Positions 8,352 through 61,364 of a stretch of DNA of 64,000 nt are shown here, piece by piece. How positions within the stretch are numbered: the stretch's first letter is position 1; every line of letters starts with the position of its first letter. The stretch covers positions 7,994-71,993 of the forward strand of contig CAVZKT010000002.1 in NCBI GenBank assembly GCA_963775955.1, written 5' to 3'. Origin of the DNA: Candidatus Moraniibacteriota bacterium. GTDB lineage: Bacteria; Patescibacteriota; Minisyncoccia; Moranbacterales; UBA2206. Below the pieces are notes generated by a model. The model saw only the letters and a program-made list of their open reading frames with translations. It did no database searches and was not told where the DNA came from. The translations under genes and the position numbers were made by a program.

Positions 8352-8451
8352 CCCCGTTAGAGTTTTAATATGAATTATGCGGGGATAAAGCAGTAATCTT
8401 TTTTGGTTTTTCAATATTAAATAAATTTAATTTTGTAAAACTCTAACGGGG
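8352..8451 (+). repeat. CCCCGTTAGA-type inverted-repeat element (16-bp perfect arms)
   Basis: CCCCGTTAGAGTTTTA at 8352-8367 and TAAAACTCTAACGGGG at 8436-8451 flank an AT-rich 68-bp core. The right arm abuts the pcrA GTG start. Confidence 0.8.
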
Positions 8452-10715
8452 TGGAAAACGACATTCTAAAAAATCTGAATCCGGCGCAGAGGGAAGCCGT
8501 GGAAACCACTGAAGGGGCGGTTTTGATCATTGCCGGAGCCGGCTCGGGCAAGACCAGGGCGCTCACGCACCGCGTGGCCTATCTGATCAAAGAAAAAAAG
8601 ATTCCGCCGCGAAATATTCTGGCGGTGACTTTTACCAACAAAGCGGCGCAAGAAATGAAAGAACGAGTGCGGGTATTATTAGATGTTAATAACCAAAAAC
8701 TAAAAACTAAAAACTACGAACTTCCAATAATGGGCACTTTCCATTCTATCTGCGCGCGGATATTGCGCCACGAAATTGAAAAATTGGGCTATAAAAAAAC
8801 TTTCAATATTTTTGACGACCAGGACCAACTGGCGACGATGAAAAAGGCGATGAAGGAAAGTGAGATGGACATGGAGCAATTTAAACCGCAGGCGATGCTT
8901 AATGCGATTTCCAAAGCCAAGAATGAACTGATTGACGCGGCGACTACAGAGAATCCATCGGCAGTTATTATGAAGAAACGGTGTCCAAGGCCTATATTGC
9001 TTACCAAAAAAAACTCAAAGAGCAAAACGCGCTTGATTTTGACGATATTATCATGCTCACCGTCCAATTATTCCGGAAATTTCCGGAAATTTTGGAAAAA
9101 TACCAGAATTTTTTCCGCTATATCATGGTGGACGAATACCAAGACACTAATCGCGCGCAATATACCTTGATTAATATGCTAGCCAAAAGGAACGGCAACA
9201 TCTGCGTCGTGGGCGATGACTGGCAGGGTATATATTCCTGGCGCGGAGCGAACATCCAAAATATCCTGGATTTTGAAAAGGATTATCCTAGCGCCAAAGT
9301 CATAAAATTGGAGCAAAACTACCGTTCCACGCAGAACATTTTGGATGCGGCCTATGGCGTAATTTCCAAAAATATCAACCGCAAGGACAAAAAAATTTGG
9401 ACCCAGAGCGCCAGCGGACAACTCATAACCTCCTATGAAGCCGGAGATGAAAGAGATGAGGCGGAATTTGTGGTGAAGGAAGTTTTGCAAGAGAGAGAAA
9501 AAGAAAAACACAAATTTTCCGATTTTGTAGTTTTGTATCGTACCAACGCGCAATCCCGCATCATGGAAGAAGTGATGCTTCAAAATTCAATTCCCTATAG
9601 GATAATCGGCGGAATAAAATTTTATTTGCGCAAGGAAATAAAAGACATTATCGCCTATTTGCGCCTCATTCAAAATTTCAATGACGCGGTATCGCTGGAG
9701 AGAATAATAAATGAACCCAAAAGAGGCATTGGAGAAGTTACGCTTAAGCATTGGGTTGAAACTTTCAAAAGAAAATAATATTGATCTGATTAATTGCGGA
9801 TTTACAAATCCGAAATCCGAAATCCTAAATCCGAAATAAATTCAAATCCGCCAACCGGCGGACAAAATTCAAAAATCTCGACTGGAAAATATTTTTAAGT
9901 TTTGTGATTTTATCAAAAGGATGAATGAGGCGATCCGCAAATTGCCGCTGACTGATTTTATGGAAAAAGTCTTTGCAGAGTCCGGGTATGAAAAATTTCT
10001 TTTGGACGGCACGGAAGAGGGAGAAATGCGGCGGGAGAATATCCGGGAGCTGCTGACAGTGGCCAAAAAATACACAGAATATAAAGGCGAAGAAGCCCTG
10101 CGGATGTTTTTGGAAGAAGTCGCGCTGGCATCTGACACGGACAATGTGAACCAAAACCTGGATGCCGTGCACCTTATGACGCTTCACAGCGCCAAGGGAT
10201 TGGAATTTAAAGTCGTTTTTATTGCCGGCCTGGAAGAAGGAATCCTGCCTCATTCCCGCAGTATGCTGGATCAGGGCGAAATGGAAGAGGAAAGGCGGCT
10301 GATGTATGTCGGCATCACGCGCGCCAAAGAAAAAGTTTATCTGTTGTTTACCAGCCAGCGCAATATTTTTGGTTCCACGCAAGTTAATCCGCCATCAAGA
10401 TTTCTGGATGATATACCGCCGCACCTTGTGCGGAATTTCCAATTTCCAATTTCCAATTTCCAAACAAATTCCAAATTACAAAATCAAATCCAAAAATTTC
10501 CCCTCACCCGTCCCGATATACATCAGGACACCCTCTCCCGAAAGGAGAGGGAAATACGGAATAAAAACACTTTTAAAGATGGTGATAGGGTAAAACACAA
10601 AATTTTCGGCGAGGGCCTAATAGTTTCCTCGCAAGGCGATACACTCACAATCGCTTTTTCCAAATCCGGGCTAAAGAAGCTTTCCGCTTCCATCGCGCCG
10701 CTTAAGAAGATTTAG
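8451..10715 (+). CDS. pcrA: ATP-dependent DNA helicase PcrA/UvrD (interrupted: frame changes near 8941 and 9765, in-frame TAA at 9837)
   Basis: Fragments 8451-9170, 8981-9778 and 9921-10715. Motifs AGAGSGKT, TFHSICARIL, VDEYQDTN, VGDDWQGIYSWRGA, LEQNYRST, TLHSAKGLEF, MYVGITRAKE. Confidence 0.9.
9806..9837 (+). repeat. tandem heptamer repeat (AAATCCG)x4.5 inside pcrA
   Basis: AAATCCGAAATCCGAAATCCTAAATCCGAAAT, followed by hairpin TCCGCCAACCGGCGGA. Confidence 0.8.
10432..10498 (+). repeat. tandem heptamer repeat (TTCCAAT)n and derivatives inside pcrA C-terminus
   Basis: GGAATTTCCAATTTCCAATTTCCAATTTCCAAACAAATTCCAAATTACAAAATCAAATCC, translated as RNFQFPISNFQTNSKLQNQIQ. Confidence 0.8.
10499..10552 (+). 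repeat. double-hairpin GC-rich element, copy in pcrA
   Basis: TCCCCTCACCCGTCCCGATATACATCAGGACACCCTCTCCCGAAAGGAGAGGG, same architecture as 25343-25390 and (inverted) 12796-12845. Confidence 0.75.
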
Positions 10716-12071: not shown

Positions 12072-12150
12072 CTCGTAACTCGACTCTCATAACTCGCAAC
12101 AAATCGGACTGGAAATAAAATAGTGTCAAGTTGCGGGTTGCGAGAGTCGA
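12072..12150 (+). repeat. heptad-word hairpin (CGTAACT family) in the xerC-like 5' leader
   Basis: CTCGTAACTCGACTCTCATAACTCGCAAC ... GTTGCGGGTTGCGAGAGTCGA. The arms pair with G:U at the transition differences. Confidence 0.75.
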
Positions 12151-12157
12151 TAAATTT

Positions 12158-13110
12158 ATGATAATTAGAGATCTCAAAAACCAATTTCTGGAATACCTGG
12201 AGATTGAAAAAGGCAAGGCCGGGAAAACTATTGAGAACTATGGCCACTATCTGAATCGGTTTATTGGATGGTCTAAAGTTTTCGATCCCCAGGATATTAC
12301 CGAAGAAACCGTCAGGGGGTTTCGGGTTTATCTTAATCGCTACGAGGACAAAAAAGGGCGGAATCTCAAAAAAATAACCCAAAATTACTATATTATCGCT
12401 CTGCGCAGTTTTTTGAAATATTTGGCCAAAAAGGATATTAAAACGCTGCAAGCGGAGAAAGTGGAAGTGGGAAAAGTGGTCCGTAAAGAAGTGGAATTCC
12501 TGGAAGCGGAGGAAGTGGAGCGAATTTTGGGCGCGGCCGACGGGAATAGTTCCAAGGTTTTGCGGGACCGGGCGATGCTGGAGCTGCTTTTCTCATCCGG
12601 TCTTCGTGTTTCCGAACTCACCAACATTGATCGCGACAAATTGGATCTCAAAAACCAGGAATTTACGGTGCGGGGCAAGGGAGACAAAATAAGGCTGGTT
12701 TTTGTTTCGGACAGCGCCAAAAGAGCGCTGGAAAAATATCTCGATAAGCGGACCGATATTGATCCGGCCTTATTTATTAGAATTCAAGCCAAATTTCCTT
12801 CTCCCTTTGAGGGAAGAAGGTCGGCCGCAGGCCGGATGAGGGTCAGTTAGATCTGCGGCTCACCCCCCGCAGTGTCCAAAGAATGGTCAAATATTACGCG
12901 GCCAAGGCGGGCATCATAAAAGACGTCCATCCGCACACTTTGCGCCATTCTTTCGCCACAGATTTATTGATAAACGGCGCCGATATCCGCAGTGTCCAGG
13001 CCATGCTTGGCCATTCTTCCATTACGACGACGCAAATTTATACCCACATTACCAACCAGCAGCTCAAAGAAGTCCACAAAGCGTTCCACGCGAGAAGAAG
13101 AAAAAAATAA
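12158..13110 (+). CDS. tyrosine site-specific recombinase XerC/XerD-like (frame broken at inserted element about 12796-12850)
   Basis: N-terminal SAM-like domain ([18 protein letters not shown]), [20 protein letters not shown], then after the break [14 protein letters not shown]...[14 protein letters not shown]. Confidence 0.85.
12796..12845 (-). repeat. double-hairpin GC-rich element, inverted copy in the xerC-like gene
   Basis: CCTTCTCCCTTTGAGGGAAGAAGGTCGGCCGCAGGCCGGATGAGGGTC, the reverse-orientation equivalent of the tilS copy. Confidence 0.75.
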
Positions 13111-18903: not shown

Positions 18904-21338
18904 TTACAATACCGTAATAGCGCTTACTTTATCCCCGGCTTGAGGTCGCATAACCCGCACGCCCTGGGTGGCGCGTCCGAGAACGGAAATATCTTTGAGC
19001 GGGATGCGGATGATTTGTCCTTTTTCAGAAGTTATAATCACATCCGTTTCAATATCATCAACATTTATGATGCTGGCGCCGATCAGTTTGCCGGTTTTGG
19101 CGGTGACGCTGGCGGTTTTTATTCCGGAGCCGCCGCGCTTTTGAATTTTATACGCTTTAAGGTCGGTTCTTTTGCCATATCCGTTTTCCGAGATGACCAA
19201 AAGTTGATTGCCTTTTTGATTTTTGAGAACTACATCCATGCCGACAACTTTATCTTCTTTCTTAAGCTTGATGCCGCGCACGCCTCCAGCTGTCCGTCCC
19301 ATCGGGCGCACATCTTTTTCTTGAAAATGGATGGCCTGGCCTTTTGAAGTCGTGATCACCGCTTCATCTTCGCCGCTCGTAGCTTCCACCCAACGCAGGG
19401 CGTCGCCCGTTTGCAGTTTGATGGCTAAGAGGCCAGAGCGCCTGACATTTTCAAATTCTTCCATAGCGGTTTTTTTGATGGTGCCCATTTCCGTGGCCAT
19501 CAGCATATATTTATAAGCGTCGTCTTTGCCAAAAGCCACAACCGCAGTCACAGATTCTTCTTGCGATAAGTTGTAAAAAATTGACGATTGACTGCCCTTT
19601 GGCCACGCGCGATGACGCTGGAATTTCATAAGCTTTGGTTTGGAAAACTTTTCCGCTATTGGTGAAAAATAAAAAATTGTCATGCGCCATGACGCCTAAA
19701 ACTTTTTTAATGGAATCTTCTTCTTTGGTGGCCGCGCCGATCACGCCCTTGCCTCCGCGGTGCTGGACTTTATACGCCGAAGGATCCATTCTTTTGATAT
19801 AGCCTTGTTCGGTAATGGTGATGATCGCTTCTTCATTGGGGATCAGATCTTCCTGCTTGAATTCGCCGACGCCGGATTTAATAATTTTGGTTTTTCTTTC
19901 ATCGCCGAATTTTTCTTTCACGCGCAAAAGTTCGTCTTTTACGATTCCTAAAATTTTCTTTTCGCTTTTCAAAATTATTTCCAATTCTTTAATTAACGCC
20001 AGTTTTTCCGCCAGCTCATCTTCAATTTTCTTGCGTTCAAGGCCGGCCAGTGTTTGCAATTTCATTTCCAAAATCGCGGTCGCCTGCTTGTCGGACAGCT
20101 TGAAATTTTTAATCAGATTTTTATGCGCGATTTCCTTGGTTTCGGATTTTTTAATAGTCGCGATAATCGCGTCAATGTGGTCCAGCGCTTTTTTGAGTCC
20201 CTCCAGAATATGCGCGCGTTCGCGCGCCTTGTCCAAATCAAATTGCGTGCGGCGGGTAACCACAATTTTTCTGTGCGCAACGTAATATTCCAGAATATCT
20301 TTTAAATTTAAAACGGTCGGCTCAATGCCGTCCACCAGCGCCAGCATATTGACGCCGAAATTTTTCTGCAGATCCGTCATGGCATAAAGCTTGTTGAGAA
20401 CTTTTTGCGGATAGGCGTCTTTTTTGAGTTCAATCACGATGCGCACGCCGTCCTTGTCCGATTCGTCGCGGATGTCGCGGATGCCCAAAAGTTTTCCTGT
20501 CATGCACCAGATCTGCCATCTTTTCAATCAAAGCCGATTTGTTGGTGGCATAAGTCATTTCGGTAATCACGATCTGAAAGGCGCCGGTTTTTGGCTCAAC
20601 AATATCCGCTTTGGCGCGCGTGAGAATTTTTCCGCGCCCGGTGCGGTAAGCTTCCAGAATATCTTTCTTGTTGTAAATAATTCCGCCGGTCGGAAAATCC
20701 GGCCCTTGGATGAATTCCACTAATTCTTCAATGGTTGCTTCGGGATTGTCGATGAGATGCGCTATCCCGTCCACCAGTTCGCTCAAATTATGCGGCGGGA
20801 TGTTGGTGGCCATGCCGACCGCAATGCCCATACTGCCGTTCAAAAGCAATTGCGGCAGATTGGCCGGCAGTACCGTCGGTTCCTGATGCTGGCCGTCAAA
20901 ATTCGGCACGAAATCCACCGTATTTTTTTCAATATCAACCAGCATTTCTTCGGCGATGGCGGAAAGCTTGGCTTCAGTATAGCGATAAGCCGCCGCGCCG
21001 TCGCCGTCCATGGAGCCGAAGTTTCCCTGGCCGCGCACCAGCGGATAGCGCAAAGAAAAATCCTGCGCCATGCGCACCATGGAATCATAAACCGCCACGT
21101 CGCCGTGCGGATGGTATTTGCCCAGCACTTCTCCGACGACAGTCGCTGATTTTCGGAATTTGGCGTTAGCGCGCAGTCCCGTGTTCCACATGGAATACAA
21201 AATTCGGCGGTGCACCGGTTTCAAGCCGTCGCGCACATCCGGCAGGGCGCGCGCCACAATAACGCTCATCGCGTAATCCAGATATGACTGCTGGACTTCC
21301 TCAACTATTTCCCTTTTAGTTATGCTTCCGATATCCAT
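18904..21338 (-). CDS. gyrA: DNA gyrase subunit A (two frame changes, about 20495 and about 19600)
   Basis: Fragments 20430-21338 ([37 protein letters not shown]), 19511-20527 and 18904-19683 (beta-pinwheel repeats). An extra A in GACAGGAAAA breaks [18 protein letters not shown]. Confidence 0.92.
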
Positions 21339-28997: not shown

Positions 28998-29067
28998 TAA
29001 AACGGGCGTGCTCAGTTTCCGCCAAAGGCGGACCCGCCTATGGCGGGGGTTAGAAAGTATAATGCAC

Positions 29068-31578: not shown

Positions 31579-32151
31579 ATGAGAGGAAAACCTGTTTCAA
31601 AAAAAGAAATACAGAAAATAGAGCAACTGAGAAAAACGGGGCATAGTCTGCCTGAAATTTGCAGAGTTTTGAAGCGAAGAAAATCCACGGTTCATGGATA
31701 TGCAAAGGATGTGGTTGTATTGCCGGAATATATAAATATTTTAAGACAAAAACAAGGTGGTAGTGCAGCAAGAGCTGAAAAATTTTGGAATAAAGCAAGA
31801 TTTAACGCAAAAAAACTATTAAGAAAAATCGGAAAAAGGGAAAAACTTTTTATTTTAGCTGCTATTTATTGGGGAGAAGGAGCAAAAAAAGAATTTAATC
31901 TTATTAACAGCGATCCGGCACTTATTCAAGTCTCCCTTTCCTGCTTAAGAGAGATTGGAGTTAAGGAAAAAGATCTTCGTATCACACTTAGGGTTTATGA
32001 GGGCATAAATATTGAAGATGCTAAAAAATATTGGTCGAAAATATGCAAAGTAAACTCAAGGAATATCAAAAATGTTAATGTTTTGGAAGGTAATAAAATC
32101 GGAAAGCTTCCATATGGAATGTGCAGAATACGCATAACCAAAGGCGGATAA
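31579..32151 (+). CDS. HTH + LAGLIDADG-like putative homing endonuclease
   Basis: N-terminal resolvase-type HTH (IEQLRKTGHSLPEICRVLKRRKSTVHGY). LFILAAIYWGEGAKKEFNLINSD resembles a LAGLIDADG motif. Flanked by a tRNA fragment and an intact tRNA. Confidence 0.35.
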   Translation: MRGKPVSKKEIQKIEQLRKTGHSLPEICRVLKRRKSTVHGYAKDVVVLPEYINILRQKQGGSAARAEKFWNKARFNAKKLLRKIGKREKLFILAAIYWGEGAKKEFNLINSDPALIQVSLSCLREIGVKEKDLRITLRVYEGINIEDAKKYWSKICKVNSRNIKNVNVLEGNKIGKLPYGMCRIRITKGG

Positions 32152-32207: not shown

Positions 32208-32279
32208 GTCCCCATAGTTCAATGGATAGAACGAGAGACTCCTAAGCTCTAGATCCACGTCCGATTCGTGGTGGGGACA
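32208..32279 (+). tRNA. tRNA-Arg(CCT)
   Basis: GTCCCCA-TA-GTTC...loop CTCCTAA...CCACG-TCCGATT-CGTGG-TGGGGAC-A. Unusual TCCGA T-loop and an A:G at pair 31:39. Confidence 0.75.
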
Positions 32280-32318
32280 CACTTTGACTCGCTTCACTTG
32301 TTCAGTGCAAGCAAAAAA

Positions 32319-33852
32319 ATGATCAAAAAAATTCCAACTCAAGTCATTGAAGTTTTACAAAAACTGGAAGAATCAGGCTTCGAGGCTTTTATCGTGGGCG
32401 GATGCGTGCGGGATTTGCTCACATTGTGGTGAGCCTGTGAACCAAAAGACTGGGATGTAGCGACTAATGCCAAGCCGGAAGAAGTGCAAAAAATATTCCC
32501 GGACAGTTTTTATGAAAATGAATTTGGAACGGTCGGAGTGAAAGTAAAGCCGTTTATTAAAAATGGAAATCCGAATCGTGAGCATGACGTGATAGAAGTA
32601 ACCACCTATCGCATTGAATCGAAATATTCCGACAAGCGCCGGCCGGATAAAGTTGAATTTGCAAAAACATTAGAGGAAGATTTATCAAGAAGGGATTTTA
32701 CCATCAACGCGATCGCATTAAAACTCGTAACTCATAACGCACAACTCGACACCCGAAGAGGAAAAAATAGCTACGAGCTACGAGCTATGGGTTACGAGAT
32801 CATTGATCCATATGATGGTCAGAAAGATATTAAGAAAAAAATAATCCGCGCAGTGGGTGACCCGCATGAAAGATTTGATGAAGATGCTTGCGGATGATGC
32901 GAGCGGTGCGGTTTCACGCGGAGCTGGGATATAAAATTGAAAAAAATACTTTTGAAGCCATTAAAAAAATATAGCCGGGGATTTAAAACACATTGCTCTT
33001 GAAAGAATAAAAGACGAACTGGCCAAAATTATATTATCCGACAATCCATGCTGAAGGCATTGATATGCTGCATAAAACTAAATCTTCTGGAATATATTAT
33101 TCCGGAATTGGAAAAGGGCGTGGGCGTGAAACAAAACCGCCATCATATCTATACGATATACAAACACAGCATTTTATCTTTAAAACATTGTCCTTCGCAA
33201 AAAATTGGAAGTGCGCTTGGCTGCGCTTCTGCATGACATTGCTAAGCCGCAAACCAAAAGAGGCGAAGGCGAATATGCGACTTTCTATAACCACGATCAT
33301 GTGGGTGCGCGGGTGGCGGCCAAAATTCTTGAGCGTCTGCGTTTTTCACGTGAAACAATTGAAAAGGTGAAACTTCTCGTGGATAATCATATGTTTTATT
33401 ACAATCCGGAAGAAGTGGGAGCCAGTTCCGTCAGAAAATTAATTCAAAAAGTCGGCTTGGAAAATATGAAAGATTTGATTGATGTGCGCATTGCCGATCG
33501 TTTGGGTTCGGGCGTGCCGAAGGCCAAGCCGTATAAATTGCGCCACTTGGAATATATGATTGAAAAAGTTTCCCACGATGCCATTTCCGTAAAGATGCTA
33601 AAAATCAACGGCAATGATCTGATGAAAGAATTAAATTTAAAACCCGGTCCCAAAATCGGCGCGATTCTGGATGTTTTGCTCTCGGAAGTTATTGAAGATG
33701 CTTCCAAAAATAATCGCGAGCATCTTTTAACGCGCGCTAAAGAATTGGATAAGGAGGATTTGAAAAAACTCCGCCAGATGGCGAAGGTAAAGATTGAAGA
33801 GAAAAAAGAAGAGGAAGACAAGGAAATTAAGAGAAAACATTGGGTGAAGTAG
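32319..33852 (+). CDS. cca: CCA-adding enzyme / poly(A) polymerase family with HD domain (5-6 frame changes)
   Basis: Pieces: MIKKIPTQVIEVLQKLEESGFEAFIVGGCVRDLL / PKDWDVATNAKPEEVQKIF...RDFTINAIAL...IIDPYDGQKDIKKKIIRAVGDPHERFDEDA / LRMMRAVRF.. / ...LAALLHDIAKP...YNHDHVGA. Confidence 0.85.
32724..32798 (+). repeat. 75-nt heptad-word hairpin inserted in frame in cca
   Basis: CTCGTAACTCATAACGCACAACTCGAC...AGCTACGAGCTACGAGCTATGGGTTACGAG encodes VTHNAQLDTRRGKNSYELRAMGY between the conserved RDFTINA and IIDP motifs. Confidence 0.8.
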
Positions 33853-33943
33853 GACCATTAGCTCAGTTGATTACCCGCCTCGGCTCGTGGAAGACACTTT
33901 GCGAGGCAGGGAGCACTGCATTTTCACCCCGCACCAAATTTAT

Positions 33944-34129
33944 GGATGCGTAGCTCAACCGGTTAGAGCGCTGCATTTTCATCCCGTTAGATATATGGAC
34001 GATTAGCTCAGTTGGTTAGAGCGTTGCATTCACATTGCAAAAGTCACTGGTTCGAGTCCAGTATCGTCCACAGAAAATCTAACGGGACAAGCATTGCAGG
34101 GGTCACAAGTTCAAGTCTTGTGCCATCCA
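33944..34129 (+). other. middle interrupted tRNA-like gene (same UUC anticodon arm) containing tRNA-Val(CAC)
   Basis: 5' part 33944-33981, 3' part 34094-34129. Bounding repeat CCCGTTAGAT (33983-33992) / ATCTAACGGG (34077-34086). Acceptor pairs 5/7. Confidence 0.5.
33997..34070 (+). tRNA. tRNA-Val(CAC)
   Basis: GGACGAT-TA-GCTC-AGTTGGTTA-GAGC-G-TTGCA-TTCACAT-TGCAA-AAGTC-ACTGG-TTCGAGT-CCAGT-ATCGTCC-A. Confidence 0.9.
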
Positions 34130-34230
34130 CATAAAATTGGTGCGGGGCAGGTTGCAGGGGTCAGTGGTCCGAGTCCGCTAGTGACCACAAATACTAAAAA
34201 CCAAATACAAAAAACTAAAAACTAACCAAA

Positions 34231-34846
34231 ATGGCTTCGCAAGTTTCCCACATAATTTACGCCCGCAAATATTTCGAAAAAAATCCGGCTTTGCCTAATT
34301 TTGAAGATGAATTTATGCTGGGCTGTGTTTTTCCGGACATCCGCCGGATTGACGAAAGTATAAAAAGAAAAGACACGCATCGCTGTTTTTCGCCGCTGGA
34401 TTTGAATTTTTCAGGACTTTCTCCGTTCCAGGCCGGCTGGAAATTTCATTTGTATTGCGATATGAAGCGGGAGGAGATTTTAAATAAATATAAATTTTAT
34501 GAAATTCCCGGAACTGCTGATTTTTGGCACCAGTCAGCCAAACAACTGGAAGATGAAATTATTTATGAAGAGTATAATAATTGGGAAAAAGTCGTGCATT
34601 ATTTCAATAATGTTCCAAAGATAGAAATAGGCATAGGATGTTACACATGAAACTTTCCAGCTGTGGTATGCGATAATCGCCAAATATATTGAGAAAAAAC
34701 CGGACAACAAATCAGCGCATATTTTTTTATCAAAACAACTGTCATGGGCGGAAAAAGCCGACGATATAGTCAAATCAGTTGACAATTTGCGCAAAAATGA
34801 GAGAGTTATAGGGATACTCAGGAAGGTGAAGGATGAAATATTATAG
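34231..34846 (+). CDS. hypothetical protein (one frameshift near 34645)
   Basis: ORF 34231-34650 continues as HETFQLWYAIIAKYIEKKPDNKSAHIFLSKQLSWAEKADDIVKSVDNLRKNERVIGILRKVKDEIL in another frame. Confidence 0.5.
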
Positions 34847-34927
34847 GCCTTGGGGTGTGGTGGAACCCGCGCAGCAGAGCGAGGCGTGGTGCGGGGCAAG
34901 CTGGCAGATTTACCTCGTGCAAATGGC

Positions 34928-35010: not shown

Positions 35011-35146
35011 CTTTATTTTTCGGAGCGTGGTATAGTGGTATTACCTGCAGCACCAGAGCGAGGCGCTCGGTGCGAGGCAGGCGCCCGTTAAATACCGGAG
35101 CATAGTATACCGGTAGTACGCGCCCCCTGCCCCGTTAAATATTTTT

Positions 35147-35217
35147 CGGGATATAGTATAGTGGTAGTACGCGCGATTCGGGTTCGTGAAGTCCCAGTTC
35201 GATTCCGGGTATCCCGA
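35147..35217 (+). tRNA. tRNA-Pro(CGG)
   Basis: CGGGATA-TA-GTAT-AGTGGTA-GTAC-G-CGCGA-TTCGGGT-TCGTG-AAGT-CCCAG-TTCGATT-CCGGG-TATCCCG-A (one A:C in the T-stem). Confidence 0.8.
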
Positions 35218-35449
35218 CATCGAAAAATTTAACGGGGTGAAGGTGGGTGTAGACCGGGTTCGATTCCCGGCATCCCGACCGAAAATTTAACAGGGTGAAG
35301 GTTCGTGAAAACCGGGCTCGCCCCGCGCCATTTCTCGGGATAATTGTGGTTTTATTAGGCATTAAGGCGAAGCCGCTTCGCTTTAGTTCTGATGAATATC
35401 ACAGATTATGTTTGGAAATGGTGCGGGGTGAAATTCCCGGCATCCCGAC

Positions 35450-35743
35450 ATGAAAATAATTATAAAAAAAATTAAAGAAAATCCGACAAGTCTGCTGCGG
35501 ATGGCCGGCTATATTTTTCAGCGCAACGAGGGCGAAGAAATGAGTTTTATCCGTCCTTTGGCGCGCGCGGGCTTTCCGCGTTTCCATATGTATGCTAGTG
35601 TGGCTGGAACTGATTTAGCAATAAACATCCATCTGGATCAGAAAAAAGAAACCTACGGAAATTCTAATCGCCATCATGGAGAATATGGAGATGAAGGCGC
35701 ATTAAAGGCGGAGATTGAGAGAATAAAAAGTATTTTGCAATAA
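35450..35743 (+). CDS. hypothetical protein
   Basis: 97-aa ORF between tRNA clusters. Confidence 0.5.
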   Translation: MKIIIKKIKENPTSLLRMAGYIFQRNEGEEMSFIRPLARAGFPRFHMYASVAGTDLAINIHLDQKKETYGNSNRHHGEYGDEGALKAEIERIKSILQ

Positions 35744-37445: not shown

Positions 37446-37450
37446 CACAG

Positions 37451-37500
37451 GCGCGCTTAGCTCAGTTGGCTAGAGTCCGCCACGGCGGATTTACACCGAG
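37451..37500 (+). pseudogene. partial copy of tRNA-Val(TAC) (acceptor, D-arm, modified anticodon arm)
   Basis: GCGCGCTTAGCTCAGTTGGCTAGAG is identical to 37745-37769, followed by TCCGCCACGGCGGA-TTTACAC-CGAG. Confidence 0.7.
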
Positions 37501-37511
37501 AGGGTAAAATT

Positions 37512-37754
37512 ATGTTTTTTGTATACATTATCGAAAATAATGACGGAAAGCTGTATATTGGTCAAACCTATAATTTAGAAAAAAGAATTCTAGATCATAA
37601 CGAATTAGGAATAGGATATACTTCTAAATTTAGACCATGGAAATTAATATATTCAGAAAGTTTTTATTCCAGGAAAGATGCTATGAAAAGAGAAAAATAT
37701 TTAAAAACCGGAGCTGGCAGGGACTGGATTAAAAATAATATCAGGCGCGCTTAG
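37512..37754 (+). CDS. GIY-YIG nuclease-domain protein (80 aa)
   Basis: MFFVYIIENNDGKLYIGQTYNLEKRILDHN...KREKYLK. The stop codon TAG lies inside the 5' end of the downstream tRNA-Val(TAC). Confidence 0.8.
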   Translation: MFFVYIIENNDGKLYIGQTYNLEKRILDHNELGIGYTSKFRPWKLIYSESFYSRKDAMKREKYLKTGAGRDWIKNNIRRA

Positions 37755-37821
37755 CTCAGTTGGCTAGAGCGCCTCGTTTACACCGAGGATGTCGGGGGTT
37801 CAAGTCCCTCAGCGCGCACCA
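37745..37821 (+). tRNA. tRNA-Val(TAC), the only tRNA here with an encoded CCA
   Basis: GCGCGCT-TA-GCTC-AGTTGGCTA-GAGC-G-CCTCG-TTTACAC-CGAGG-ATGTC-GGGGG-TTCAAGT-CCCTC-AGCGCGC-A-CCA. Confidence 0.9.
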
Positions 37822-37933
37822 TTTCGGAAAAGTGCGGATGGAGTCCGCCACGGCGGATTTACAACAGAGAGTTTGGGGGCTGAAAGTTCGCCGTGGCGAA
37901 TTCGAGTCCTATAGGATCCACCCTTAAAAATAA

Positions 37934-38181
37934 CCTGGATAGCTCAGTTCCGCCAAGGGCGGACAGGGTTCGAGCACACGACCCCGCACTAAAATTTTGC
38001 CGAGTTAGCTCAGTGGTAGAGCACACGACTGAAAATCGTGGTGTCCCCAGTTCGATCCTGGGACTCGGCACATAAATGGCAAAATTTAGTACGGGGCAAG
38101 CTGAAAATTTTACCCCGCACCAATCCGCCGCGGATTTGGTGTCGGGGCCTTGCGTGCCCAGTTCGACTCTGGGATCTGGCA
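37934..38181 (+). other. interrupted tRNA-Phe-like gene enclosing intact tRNA-Phe(GAA)
   Basis: CCTGGATAGCTCAGTT[CCGCCAAGGGCGG]...GAGCACACGAC | CCCGCACTAAAATTTT | tRNA-Phe | AAAATTTAGTACGGGG CAAG CTGAAAA [TTTTACCCCGCACCAATCCGCCGCGGATTTGGTGTCGGGG] CCTTGCGTG-CCCAG-TTCGACT-CTGGG-ATCTGGC-A. Confidence 0.5.
37999..38070 (+). tRNA. tRNA-Phe(GAA)
   Basis: GCCGAGT-TA-GCTC-AGTGGTA-GAGC-A-CACGA-CTGAAAA-TCGTG-GTGTC-CCCAG-TTCGATC-CTGGG-ACTCGGC-A. Confidence 0.9.
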
Positions 38182-39841: not shown

Positions 39842-39918
39842 CCCCGTTAGAAGTTATATATTTTGCTTATTAAAGCCTTAAATGGCAATTTTTCGCTTGA
39901 AAAAGACTTCTAACGGGG
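39842..39918 (+). repeat. CCCCGTTAGA-type inverted-repeat element
   Basis: CCCCGTTAGAAGT (39842-39854) / ACTTCTAACGGGG (39906-39918). Confidence 0.8.
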
Positions 39919-40585: not shown

Positions 40586-40768
40586 AAATTCAAAATAAAA
40601 TATGCAAAAACATCCCGAGCAATTGGGATGTTTTTGTTTACTCCCGCATCAACTTTTTATTTTATTAAATTTCGATTATTAACCAATTAATTTCTATGTA
40701 AAAAGTTGGTGCGGGGTTTGACCTAAGGAGTTGTTTTTGGTAAACTAAGCCTTGTAATATAGTATTTT

Positions 40769-55891: not shown

Positions 55892-56000
55892 CCCCGTTAG
55901 AAGTTCACAGACGTCTTTTTTCACATAGATACGCGCGAGCGAAGCGGCTTTACCTTTAAGTATTCTTTTTGGTGGATACTTTCCAAAAATTCTAACGGGG
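55892..56000 (+). repeat. CCCCGTTAGA-type inverted-repeat element
   Basis: CCCCGTTAGAA (55892-55902) / TTCTAACGGGG (55990-56000). Confidence 0.8.
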
Positions 56001-61184: not shown

Positions 61185-61364
61185 AATAAAAAACAGCCCC
61201 GAAGGGCTATTTCCGACCACGTTCCTATGCTGGATGTCCCAGCCACACCACCATCCGGTGATAGTTCAGAATACAGGTCTTTGTGCTTATAATACTAGCA
61301 TAACTAAAAAATATTTCAAGTTAAATTGTCCACAGCCTAAAATATGGCTTAAATAAGGAATTTT

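Follow-up and report, generated by a model that had tools for sequence, protein, structure and literature searches.

Selfish DNA usually spares its host either by self-splicing, as introns and inteins do, or by choosing safe landing sites. Integrative elements are said, in an account attributed to Williams from 2002, to target tRNA genes and to carry a partial copy that restores them. Two kinds of GIY-YIG enzyme also bear on the subject of this report. SsnA, a single-domain GIY-YIG protein of 94 amino acids (aa), binds a folded palindromic repeat in single-stranded DNA (ssDNA) and cuts beside the repeat; the cut is specific to one strand and requires flanking sequence that is not palindromic, whereas any kind of loop is accepted, and its gene is bracketed by repeats (NTS-ssnA-NTS) in an arrangement that the authors call 'IS-like' (IS, insertion sequence), mobility not being shown in that work, which mentions neither tRNA nor Patescibacteria (PMC11893778). 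SegB of phage T4 is a free-standing GIY-YIG homing endonuclease encoded in a tRNA cluster, with a T-psi-C target, and is linked to tRNA inheritance and amplification (PMC2330249, PMC13096335). A survey of tRNA introns in Patescibacteria reports group I introns only (PMC13011429). Here we describe a locus at positions 33852-34187 of a 64,000-nucleotide (nt) stretch of the genome of Candidatus Moraniibacteriota bacterium (contig CAVZKT010000002.1; hereafter the window), in which an intact tRNA-Val(CAC) gene is enclosed by two pairs of tRNA halves, one pair inside the other, with two inverted-repeat (IR) clamps and a hairpin in one D-loop. We consider it probable that this nest is one live tRNA-Val(CAC) gene inside two dead ones, built by serial insertion of IR-bounded tRNA cassettes related to small GIY-YIG elements.

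Every nested part that the original prediction had listed from the letters of the window is present, in one copy and where it was placed, and all lie on the plus strand. The outermost layer, shell A, starts at the G of the stop codon of the gene for the CCA-adding enzyme. Its 5' half (33852-33926) comprises the acceptor strand GGACCAT, the D-arm, the anticodon-stem strand CTGCA and, at the junction, TT plus TTCA, and it holds a GC-rich hairpin of 37 nt (33874-33910; CCCGCCTCG...CGAGGCAGG) between the D-loop TTA and the D-stem GAGC. The left arm of IR-A follows (33927-33941; CCCCGCACCAAATTT), the terminal inverted repeat of an outer cassette, and then the 5' half of the middle layer, shell B (33944-33981; GGATGCG...CTGCA-TTTTCA), and the left arm of IR-B (33982-33992; TCCCGTTAGAT), the terminal inverted repeat of an inner cassette. 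At the center is the complete tRNA-Val(CAC) (33997-34071; CCA not encoded), recovered by ARAGORN and by the Rfam model RF00005 (72.1 bits over positions 1-71 of 71), which is the sole Val(CAC) gene in the window. The 3' side mirrors this order: the right arm of IR-B (34077-34087; ATCTAACGGGA) with the tail CAAGCA, the 3' half of shell B (34094-34129; T-TGCAG-GGGTC-ACAAG-TTCAAGT-CTTGT-GCCATCC-A), the right arm of IR-A (34134-34147; AAATTGGTGCGGGG) with the tail CAGG, and the 3' half of shell A (34152-34187; T-TGCAG-GGGTC-AGTGG-TCCGAGT-CCGCT-AGTGACC-A). The IR-B arms pair perfectly and those of IR-A at 14 of 15 positions with one bulged T. The acceptor stems pair at only 4/7 positions in shell A (34152-34187 with 33852-33858) and 5/7 in shell B, values that had been predicted and taken as favoring decay. 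Shell A is best read as the outermost and oldest former tRNA-Val(CAC) gene, and its 37-nt hairpin is a secondary insertion made when that shell was already dead.

The identity of the outer genes emerges from their relatives. With the gene for the CCA-adding enzyme as query we recovered 80 loci of shared synteny, nearly all of which belong to Candidatus Moranbacteria (Moraniibacteriota) of the candidate phyla radiation (CPR/Patescibacteria); labels such as L001 denote fetched loci, and P0122, P0137 and P0188 denote GIY-YIG proteins. In the relatives, as in the window, the Val genes keep a constant position between the CCA-enzyme gene and a gene family coding for a 204-aa protein. The homologues of shell B are the Val(CAC) genes of L001, L111 and L112: it matches shell B of L111 at 27/32 positions in the 5' half and 33/35 in the 3' half, and its 3' half agrees with the L001 shell at 32/35. 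Shell A is akin to the Val(CAC) cargo, i.e., the tRNA gene held within a nest, of L015 (30/33 in the 5' half with the hairpin removed, 30/35 in the 3' half), L001 and L038. Both shells match Val(TAC), Val(GAC), Phe and Glu tRNAs less well than Val(CAC), and only 15-22 of 33-37 positions agree with an Escherichia coli tRNA-Glu(UUC). In the closest species representative, L001, a Val(CAC) shell with all stems perfect lies upstream of the 204-aa gene (GGATGAC...CTGCA-TTCACAT-TGCAG-GGGTC-GCAAG-TTCGAGT-CTTGT-GTCATCC), interrupted in its D-loop by an IR-framed Val(CAC) (GGACATA...AGTGG-TTCAAGT-CCACT-TATGTCC). As in the CTGCA-TTCACAT-TGCAG of this shell, the uninterrupted anticodon loop of the A and B lineages always reads TTCACAT. 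Because the uninterrupted relatives read thus, A and B are shown, as judged by this comparison, to be former tRNA-Val(CAC) genes. Read against those loops, TTTTCA is a remnant of the native loop fused to the end of an element, not positions 32-37 of a UUC loop, and the 'anticodon UUC' and 'position 37/38' that the original prediction had drawn from it, when it proposed two tRNA(UUC) genes cut at the canonical intron position, are an artefact of counting along TT plus the element end.

The relatives also supply filled and empty sites. L014 has an intact Val(CAC) after the CCA-enzyme gene, i.e., an empty site, and L015, a different species with flanks 81-85% identical, has the same gene with two positions different and its D-loop split by CTTG-CCCGCCCACCTTTG-TCT-[complete Val(CAC)]-CAAAGGTGGGCGGG-TGAAA, the conserved TGG of the split gene being lost. 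The differences between the cargo of L001 and that of L015 are compensatory pairs, and the cargo hence behaves as a live tRNA. In L112, a B-type 3' half is outermost, directly upstream of the downstream gene (94% protein identity) with no A 3' half, the contig ending inside this half so that its 5' side falls outside; The Pro(CGG) gene of L112, moreover, is un-nested, unlike the nested Pro genes found at that place in L001 and in the window. The order of nesting is itself reversed between close relatives, with a B-type shell and A-type cargo in L001 and A as the shell with B inside in the window. Insertion polymorphism is thus seen at L014/L015, at the Pro gene of L112 and in L111, which lacks layer A. 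These comparisons fit repeated lineage-specific replacement rather than a conserved processing design.

L111 is an independent contig from a Joint Genome Institute (JGI) metagenome. Its shell B is outermost, begins at the same point of the CCA-enzyme gene as shell A does in the window, has an acceptor stem of 7/7 and bears a 20-nt palindrome in its D-loop; the B/Val junction (CTGCATTTTCATCCCGTTAGAT), arms and cargo of the window are matched base for base in this contig, save for a difference at one of the 75 positions of the cargo, and the arms, spacers and junctions of IR-B show no substitution at all. The two differences in the 3' half of shell B lie in the T-loop and at acceptor position 67, the latter non-compensatory, and none of the three changes in the B acceptor stem is compensatory. 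This contig bears directly on the notion of a mis-assembly in which variants of a single Val locus from different strains were strung together, to which the many frameshifted essential genes of the window and the presence of layer A in this window alone might lend color. The identical B/Val junction in an independent assembly, the recurrence of similarly built nests in dozens of assemblies that are not related, and the fact that mis-assembly does not make perfectly nested palindromic frames render such an artefact highly improbable.

The B[Val] unit of the window is 98.2% identical to that of L111, as against only 80% and 89% for the flanking genes, and the tract of identity stops in the D-loop of B; a recent exchange of this unit is possible. 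As such a tract resembles that left by gene conversion, it also bears on a serious alternative or complement, which can coexist with serial insertion: a GIY-YIG endonuclease would cut the intact tRNA gene, and repair from the nested allele of a relative would spread the insert, the shell halves acting as homology arms and the inverted repeats being nuclease sites or passengers. The occurrence of the same junction with different shells, in L076 and L077, points in the same direction. Nevertheless, homing copies a nested allele that already exists and does not create the first nest. We return to it below with the nucleases that might perform it.

Small inserts without cargo are a further feature of these loci. 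A 20-nt palindrome, CCTGCCTGCCGGCAGGCAGG, occupies the position of the shell A hairpin in shell B of L111 and in the Val gene of L035 (2645-2739), and recurs in the D-loop of a 5' tRNA shell in L010 (1561) and of Leu shells in L051 (8764) and L111, with sites noted at position 951 of L111 and 77 of L038; it usually lies between the D-loop TTA and the D-stem. The Val(CAC) of L035 is perfect apart from this palindrome, with no cargo inside; it may have become a pseudogene very recently, or its tRNA puts up with the insert or loses it. Some small inserts of this kind may be tolerated or removed at the RNA level. As a separate observation, small hairpins with the pattern (CGTCA)TCCCGAG...CTCGGGA(TC) are much like the NTS/SRM motif that has been published in connection with Ssn (CGTCATTCCCGCG..GCGGGAATC). 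They are found in L001 (6650-6700), L058 (2600-2650) and the tRNA shells of L055, L056, L066 and L067, either after the CCA-enzyme gene or in the D-arms of dead tRNA shells, where they often form tandem pairs.

These data allow us to weigh the idea that the nest is a functional intron-containing or split tRNA, in which the IR helices would join the halves, the outer RNAs would be ligated into tRNA(UUC), and the inner tRNAs would be released. The minimum free energy (MFE) fold of the RNA from 33852-34188 does mirror the nesting perfectly, at -133.5 kcal/mol as against -99.3 +/- 5.8 kcal/mol for shuffles (z = -5.9; 0/100 shuffles as good). Shell B joined at TTTTCA/TTGCAG is called by ARAGORN as tRNA-Glu(ttc) with acceptor mismatches 6:67 and 7:66, and the B of L111 joined at TTTTCA/T gives a cloverleaf with a 7/7 acceptor stem and the same call; the IR-B arms, spacers and junctions are invariant between the window and L111, and the cargo-less palindrome of L035 hints that some inserts may be tolerated or removed. 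Yet the shell bodies and their ancestry are Val(CAC), not Glu, and a Val-bodied tRNA reading Glu codons would presumably be harmful. Shell A is called only with its D-loop hairpin deleted and its acceptor stem shifted, and cross-joins of the A 5' half with the B 3' half, or the reverse, yield no tRNA. ARAGORN with introns of 0-400 nt allowed recovers no interrupted tRNA in the window and only the central tRNA at this locus, and an Rfam E-value scan of 33800-34250 likewise returns the central tRNA alone, the halves receiving no score. Neither sequence nor fold offers a bulge-helix-bulge (two 3-nt bulges and a 4-bp helix) at either shell; the unpaired nucleotides between anticodon stem and IR helix number 7 x 8 before a helix of 10-11 bp in B and 6 x 5 before one of 14 bp in A. 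No EndA or RtcB was detected by Pfam among ~50 open reading frames (ORFs) of the window, and neither group I nor any other Rfam intron family was matched in the window at the gathering score or, with E <= 10, between 33800 and 34250; an insert is made up of no more than a tRNA and its arms of 10-15 nt. Moreover, the acceptor stems are broken by non-compensatory changes, shell B of L111 has its extra D-loop hairpin, the number and order of layers vary among close relatives, and most junctions in the relatives lack the anticodon or G18-G19, so that excision could not restore a tRNA. We consequently regard this explanation as highly improbable, and with it falls the proposed likeness to halves that rejoin as in the split tRNAs of Nanoarchaeum. 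The other option that had been entertained, in which tRNA cassettes with IR ends inserted one after another and their host genes decayed, is upheld by the filled and empty sites, the non-compensatory shell changes and the nature of the repeats as element ends (see below). One apparent sign of decay should be discounted: U55 of the tRNA T-loop is nearly universal and shell A has a C there (TCCGA), but the apparently functional tRNA-Arg(CCT) of the window (32208-32280) and the Val(CAC) genes of L049 and L058 carry it too, and it is therefore not by itself a mark of degeneration.

The arms of the cassettes point to their origin. IR-B is the terminal inverted repeat (TIR) of an element of ~290 bp coding for a single-domain GIY-YIG protein of ~80-96 aa, in which Pfam PF01541 spans nearly the whole nuclease with no second domain. 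Arms of the IR-B type (TCCCGTTAGAGAC, CCCCGTTAGAAAG and similar) frame GIY-YIG ORFs in L046, L113-120, L121-128 and L129-134. In L046, the frame CCCCGTTAGAAAC...GTTTCTAATGGGG lies between two protein genes with TGGA at either side; P0122 loci have the layout TCCCGTTAGAGAC-aaat-ATG...GTCTCTAACGGGA-TAA; and in P0188 loci the element sits between secY and ybaB/adk. In the P0137 loci (L129-L134), the TIR-framed element, with ATGAA at either side, fits tightly between two ORFs of the phosphoenolpyruvate (PEP)-utilizing family and overlaps the start of the second, suggesting that it may have split one protein-coding gene in two. The nuclease family has 6222 members at E <= 1e-8, with 75-85% identity across CPR phyla, and the right arm, read as codons, encodes the C-terminus F-L-x-L-T-G in 86 of the 120 best homologues. 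Its best relative in the PDB is the UPF0213 protein 1zg2 (E = 7e-9), and NCBIfam has no family name for these nucleases, returning only a sub-threshold TIGR01453. A metagenome scan for IR-A arms 240-268 nt apart gave 15 loci: six have an intact GIY-YIG ORF of ~92 aa, a seventh (L143) has one ambiguous residue, and three hold tRNA nests; the right arm encodes ...LANLVRG in four of the six intact ORFs, and GTAAA and GTGA occur as flanking repeats. These matches show that the two clamps of the Val nest are, in sequence, ends of GIY-YIG mini-elements, which are, as far as the homologues indicate, widespread in CPR bacteria and often accompanied by flanking duplications of 4-5 bp.

The same ends are shared by elements of different content, as in TIR elements and their miniature inverted-repeat transposable elements (MITEs). 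Arms of the CCCCGTTAGA type frame GIY-YIG ORFs (L046, L113, L121, L129), tRNAs (for Val and Pro in the window and for Val in L111) and short inserts rich in AT (window 8352, 39842 and 55892), and those of the CCCCGCACC type likewise frame ORFs, tRNAs and short inserts, so that coding and short non-coding copies have terminal inverted repeats in common. The direct repeats found at the flanks are TTGA (three times), CTTG, TGGA, ATGAA, GTAAA and GTGA, besides CAAG (twice, L149); cargo-less copies in the window and the relatives have TTGA/TTGA and CTTG/CTTG flanks. The loose arm motif on its own shows no enrichment (96 occurrences vs 80 in shuffles), and only paired arms are significant. Carriage by phages was also considered and dropped, the 26 hits of a scan of viral contigs with TTGGTGCGGGGTGAA being chance matches, none with a left arm.

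Nesting is not confined to Val. Of the 386 tRNAs in the fetched loci, 13 are flanked by a GC-rich inverted repeat that is exact over >= 9 nt, vs 0.7 expected when flanks are swapped. We count ~20 nests for eight isoacceptors, namely Val-CAC, Val-GAC, Pro-CGG, Phe(GAA), Arg-CCT, Leu-TAG, Thr-TGT and Gly-CCC, with up to three layers. The insertion points are the D-loop, anticodon loop and T-loop, and now and then stem edges. In all but two of these nests the shell could be typed, and not once was it non-cognate to its cargo. The shells gather mismatches and extra hairpins. The clearest example is the three-layer Gly(CCC) nest of L149: there, both shells have 7/7 acceptor stems, CAAG stands at either side of each frame, and deletion of the frame with one CAAG restores a tRNA-Gly(CCC) in both layers.

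The window itself has two further nests. That of Pro(CGG) (35021-35450) has a live gene at 35147-35218, framed by CCCCGTTAAAT/ATTTAACGGGG-TGAAG, within at least two Pro shells, the 5' parts of which lie at 35021-35044 and 35096-35129 and the 3' parts at 35243-35278 and at 35301-35320 plus 35433-35448; it also has a hairpin (35045-35081) and an IR-framed insert (35321-35432) in the T-loop of the outer 3' half. The Phe(GAA) nest (37934-38181) has its live gene at 37999-38071, framed by CCCCGCACTAAA/TTTAGTACGGGG-CAAG, inside a decayed Phe shell whose D-loop bears a hairpin (CCGCCAAGGGCGG) and whose 3' half holds an 'empty' arm-arm hairpin (38113-38146), and L007 has the same double insertion. A still older Phe-like remnant may lie at 37822-37925. 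In addition, two one-sided shells precede live genes: a 5' Val fragment with two D-loop hairpins (29004-29054) directly upstream of Val(GAC), and a 5' Leu fragment with an arm-type hairpin (34846-34912; ...GGTGCGGGG-CAAG) upstream of Leu(CAG). They are probably nests that lost their other side to recombination.

Recombination of this sort raises the question of whether a single insertion followed by unequal crossing-over, in which misaligned halves and arms are duplicated, could have deepened the nests. The one-sided shells would suit such a process, as would the Pro nest, where the arms are near-identical between layers (left, CCCGTTAAAT and CCCCGTTAAAT; right, ATTTAACAGGG-TGAAG and ATTTAACGGGG-TGAAG) and the outer halves differ in type, the 5' one resembling the L001 shell and the 3' ones the L001 cargo and L112, indicating that the Pro layers have recombined. 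Such mosaic halves would be expected of homing by repair as well. In the Val nest, however, the two frames belong to different repeat families (CCCCGCACC vs TCCCGTTAGA) and A and B to different Val(CAC) lineages; duplication hence cannot have made the second Val layer, and we consider unequal recombination improbable as the source of the nest.

The nucleases, for their part, lend homing some of its appeal. The sole GIY-YIG ORF of the window (37512-37751, within 37450-37821; PF01541, 66.6 bits) is a member of a third subfamily, which lacks these inverted repeats. It is preceded by a 5' copy of tRNA-Val(TAC) that has been displaced (positions 1-46, at 37450-37503, with the hairpin TCCGCCACGGCGGA) and followed by the complete Val(TAC) (37745-37821), the stop codon of the ORF being a TAG inside the 5' end of the latter. 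The same design of an ORF in a broken tRNA gene beside a complete copy is seen in L013, for Leu in L051 and L111, for Val in L055 and for Gly in L039. Together with the precedent of T4 SegB, a GIY-YIG enzyme among tRNA genes that recognizes the T-psi-C motif and causes co-conversion and amplification (PMC2330249, PMC13096335), these cases make it conceivable that nested alleles spread by cutting and repair. Homing, however, does not predict the 4-5-bp flanking duplications or the frames in protein-gene contexts, and the nucleases of the elements lack the DNA-binding domain of SegB-type enzymes. On balance we think it unlikely, if worth serious attention, that homing is what made these nests.

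Serial insertion, the explanation that we prefer, is carried by the anatomy of the locus, the Val(CAC) ancestry of its shells, the identity of its inverted repeats with element ends, the filled and empty sites, the flanking duplications and the cognate match of cargo and shell. The history might have run as follows. A resident Val(CAC) gene, A, would have been hit in its anticodon loop by a CCCCGCACCAAATTT-bounded cassette carrying a complete Val(CAC) gene, B, which took over the function of A; a second cassette, with TCCCGTTAGAT at its ends and the present Val(CAC) as its cargo, would then have entered B at that same point. The cassettes would be non-autonomous relatives of the ~290-bp elements, with a tRNA in place of the nuclease. 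We propose that insertion into a single-copy tRNA gene would be survivable only if the insert supplied the same tRNA, and that the insert could then no longer be lost; because only cognate insertions would survive and thereupon become indispensable, cargo and shell would always match. Mobilization would presumably occur in trans by a GIY-YIG nuclease, perhaps acting on folded ssDNA as for Ssn; both the chemistry of insertion and the order of events given here are conjectural. Recombination among layers and alleles would further reshuffle halves, as suggested by the Pro nest, the one-sided shells and the Phe shells of the window and L007, which resemble their own cargo. No convincing promoter is predicted directly upstream of the nest, and the inner tRNA would be expressed by read-through from the CCA-enzyme gene, processed by ribonuclease P and at its 3' end, and then furnished with CCA. 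In its most ambitious form, this proposal would describe an active new kind of element, in which an Ssn-like ssDNA nuclease of ~90 aa mobilizes arm-framed cargo in trans and tRNA-bearing copies home into cognate loops and replace the gene; we offer this form only tentatively, the odds being somewhat against it.

Several observations weigh against this scenario or are not accounted for by it. The Val junctions in the window have no clean target duplication, native loop bases being missing there and elsewhere, and target duplications are absent or indistinct at most TGAA-tailed tRNA frames. Constant tails accompany the tRNA frames (GGGG-TGAA, CNYG-CCCC or CAAG/CAGG; GGGG-TGAA goes with CNYG-CCCC, or the orientation is reversed, as in A and B), and are not seen on the nuclease-carrying copies; neither plain duplication of the target nor a carried tetranucleotide of the IS91 or IS608 kind explains the TGAA, CNYG and CAAG tails in every case. 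The 64-kb window has no TIR-type nuclease copy, tblastn finding no second GIY-YIG, intact or decayed. We found no recombinase borne by the elements, whether of the DDE, HUH, serine or another class, the DDE and HUH classes having been sought by Pfam among ~50 window ORFs; the only ORF of the autonomous copy is a single GIY-YIG domain, with no transposase of a recognized class, and a search of the fetched loci for paired arms separated by up to 2.5 kb gave no larger autonomous element. The GIY-YIG nucleases act by hydrolysis, and theirs is not a known transposase fold. Some layers elsewhere, as in the Pro nest, look like the outcome of interlayer recombination rather than of fresh insertion. 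The shells of L111 (shell B), L149, L077 and L046 are perfectly paired, and death of the shells, which is evident in this window, is for these four only inferred. Finally, the cargo-less and otherwise perfect Val(CAC) of L035 with its D-loop palindrome is left unexplained by the model.

The window also has frames of the same repeat families around short AT-rich cargo with neither tRNA nor ORF (8352-8451, 39842-39918, 55892-56000 and 40653-40716). Three of the four abut a promoter-like -35 box (GGGG-TTGACA, TTGACT or TTTGAC) with a -10 box ~17 nt further on; the frame at 55892 has TTGA at either side, that at 40653 precedes tRNA-Cys and tRNA-Leu(TAA), and that at 8352 precedes uvrD. It looks as if the elements insert into the TTGA(C) of promoters.

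The housekeeping genes of the window include gyrA, uvrD/pcrA, ftsH, tilS, infB, nusA, tig and rplS. Some essential genes are broken: gyrA (18904-21338) consists of three overlapping ORFs with frameshifts, uvrD/pcrA (8451-10715) of three pieces and the CCA-adding enzyme (32484-33852) of at least two, and the ORF at 34231-34650 codes for 139 aa vs 204 aa in its homologues. Assembly indel errors rather than pseudogenization are most likely responsible, and exact homopolymer lengths in the window therefore call for caution. Just upstream of tRNA-Arg(CCT), a 190-aa ORF (31579-32151) has a sub-threshold Pfam match to a helix-turn-helix (HTH) domain; we had considered it a LAGLIDADG endonuclease from a motif seen by eye, and abandoned this candidate for lack of Pfam support. 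One Xer-type tyrosine recombinase gene of the window (12131-12847) lies beside tRNA-Met and tRNA-Ala. A DUF3800-IX RNA of Rfam (61211-61279, minus strand; 48.8 bits, gathering score 36.8) is unrelated to the nest.

The evidence points to a third route by which selfish DNA may enter an essential gene, in addition to self-splicing and safe landing sites: the element brings along a spare copy of the gene that it destroys. The nested 'fossil' layers would then be a record of successive replacements of one tRNA gene, implying a fast horizontal turnover of tRNA alleles in the tiny genomes of CPR bacteria. If active, the tRNA frames would amount to a self-propagating replacement drive for essential RNA genes, and Ssn-type single-domain GIY-YIG nucleases might acquire a role in mobile-element behavior with target duplications and exchange of cargo. 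There are practical consequences too: programs that find tRNAs will return the innermost gene alone, searches that allow for introns or split tRNAs can be misled into calling false tRNAs, here 'tRNA-Glu(UUC)', and assemblies are prone to break at such loci.

Our literature searches brought up neither a case of a tRNA gene lodged inside a cognate one nor a GIY-YIG element with a tRNA as its cargo, and mobile elements that disrupt an essential gene while supplying a complete substitute for it, leaving fossil genes one within another, seem not to have been described. Each of the known systems shares a part of this picture. The introns of archaeal and eukaryal tRNAs, the split tRNAs of Nanoarchaeum and group I introns likewise interrupt tRNA loops with pairing flanks, but here there is neither bulge-helix-bulge nor ribozyme, the host genes decay, and function resides in the insert. 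MITEs, REPINs and IS200/IS605 derivatives are similarly short and non-coding, share their hairpin ends with a coding parent, are numerous and nest, and have short or absent target duplications. Their parent, however, is a DDE or HUH transposase and not a GIY-YIG nuclease, whereas the derivatives described here carry a functional essential gene and persist inside the gene that they replaced. With SegB there is in common a GIY-YIG nuclease embedded among tRNA genes; SegB differs in being a multi-domain, intergenic phage enzyme without nested shells or an inverted-repeat frame. Integrative elements also use a tRNA gene as their landing site and keep its function alive through tRNA sequence of the invader, a logic that the window ORF at 37512-37751, with its displaced 5' copy of Val(TAC), obeys exactly. 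They are kilobases long, integrase-driven and bounded by a direct repeat of part of the tRNA, in contrast to the nesting of whole genes seen here. The closest parallel is Ssn. In the Ssn system, a local hairpin stands on each side, whereas in the present elements the cargo is enclosed by a single long-range repeat, one arm at either end, the right arm lies within the coding sequence, flanking duplications occur, and a tRNA can be the cargo. Nevertheless, in both a single-domain GIY-YIG gene of ~90 codons is bracketed, in these differing layouts, by inverted repeats that can form hairpins and is accompanied by numerous gene-less repeat copies per genome, SRM-like hairpins (e.g., CGTCATCCCGAGCGAAGTCGAGGGATC) occur in these genomes too, and the loop tolerance of SsnA fits a stem whose 'loop' is here a whole gene.

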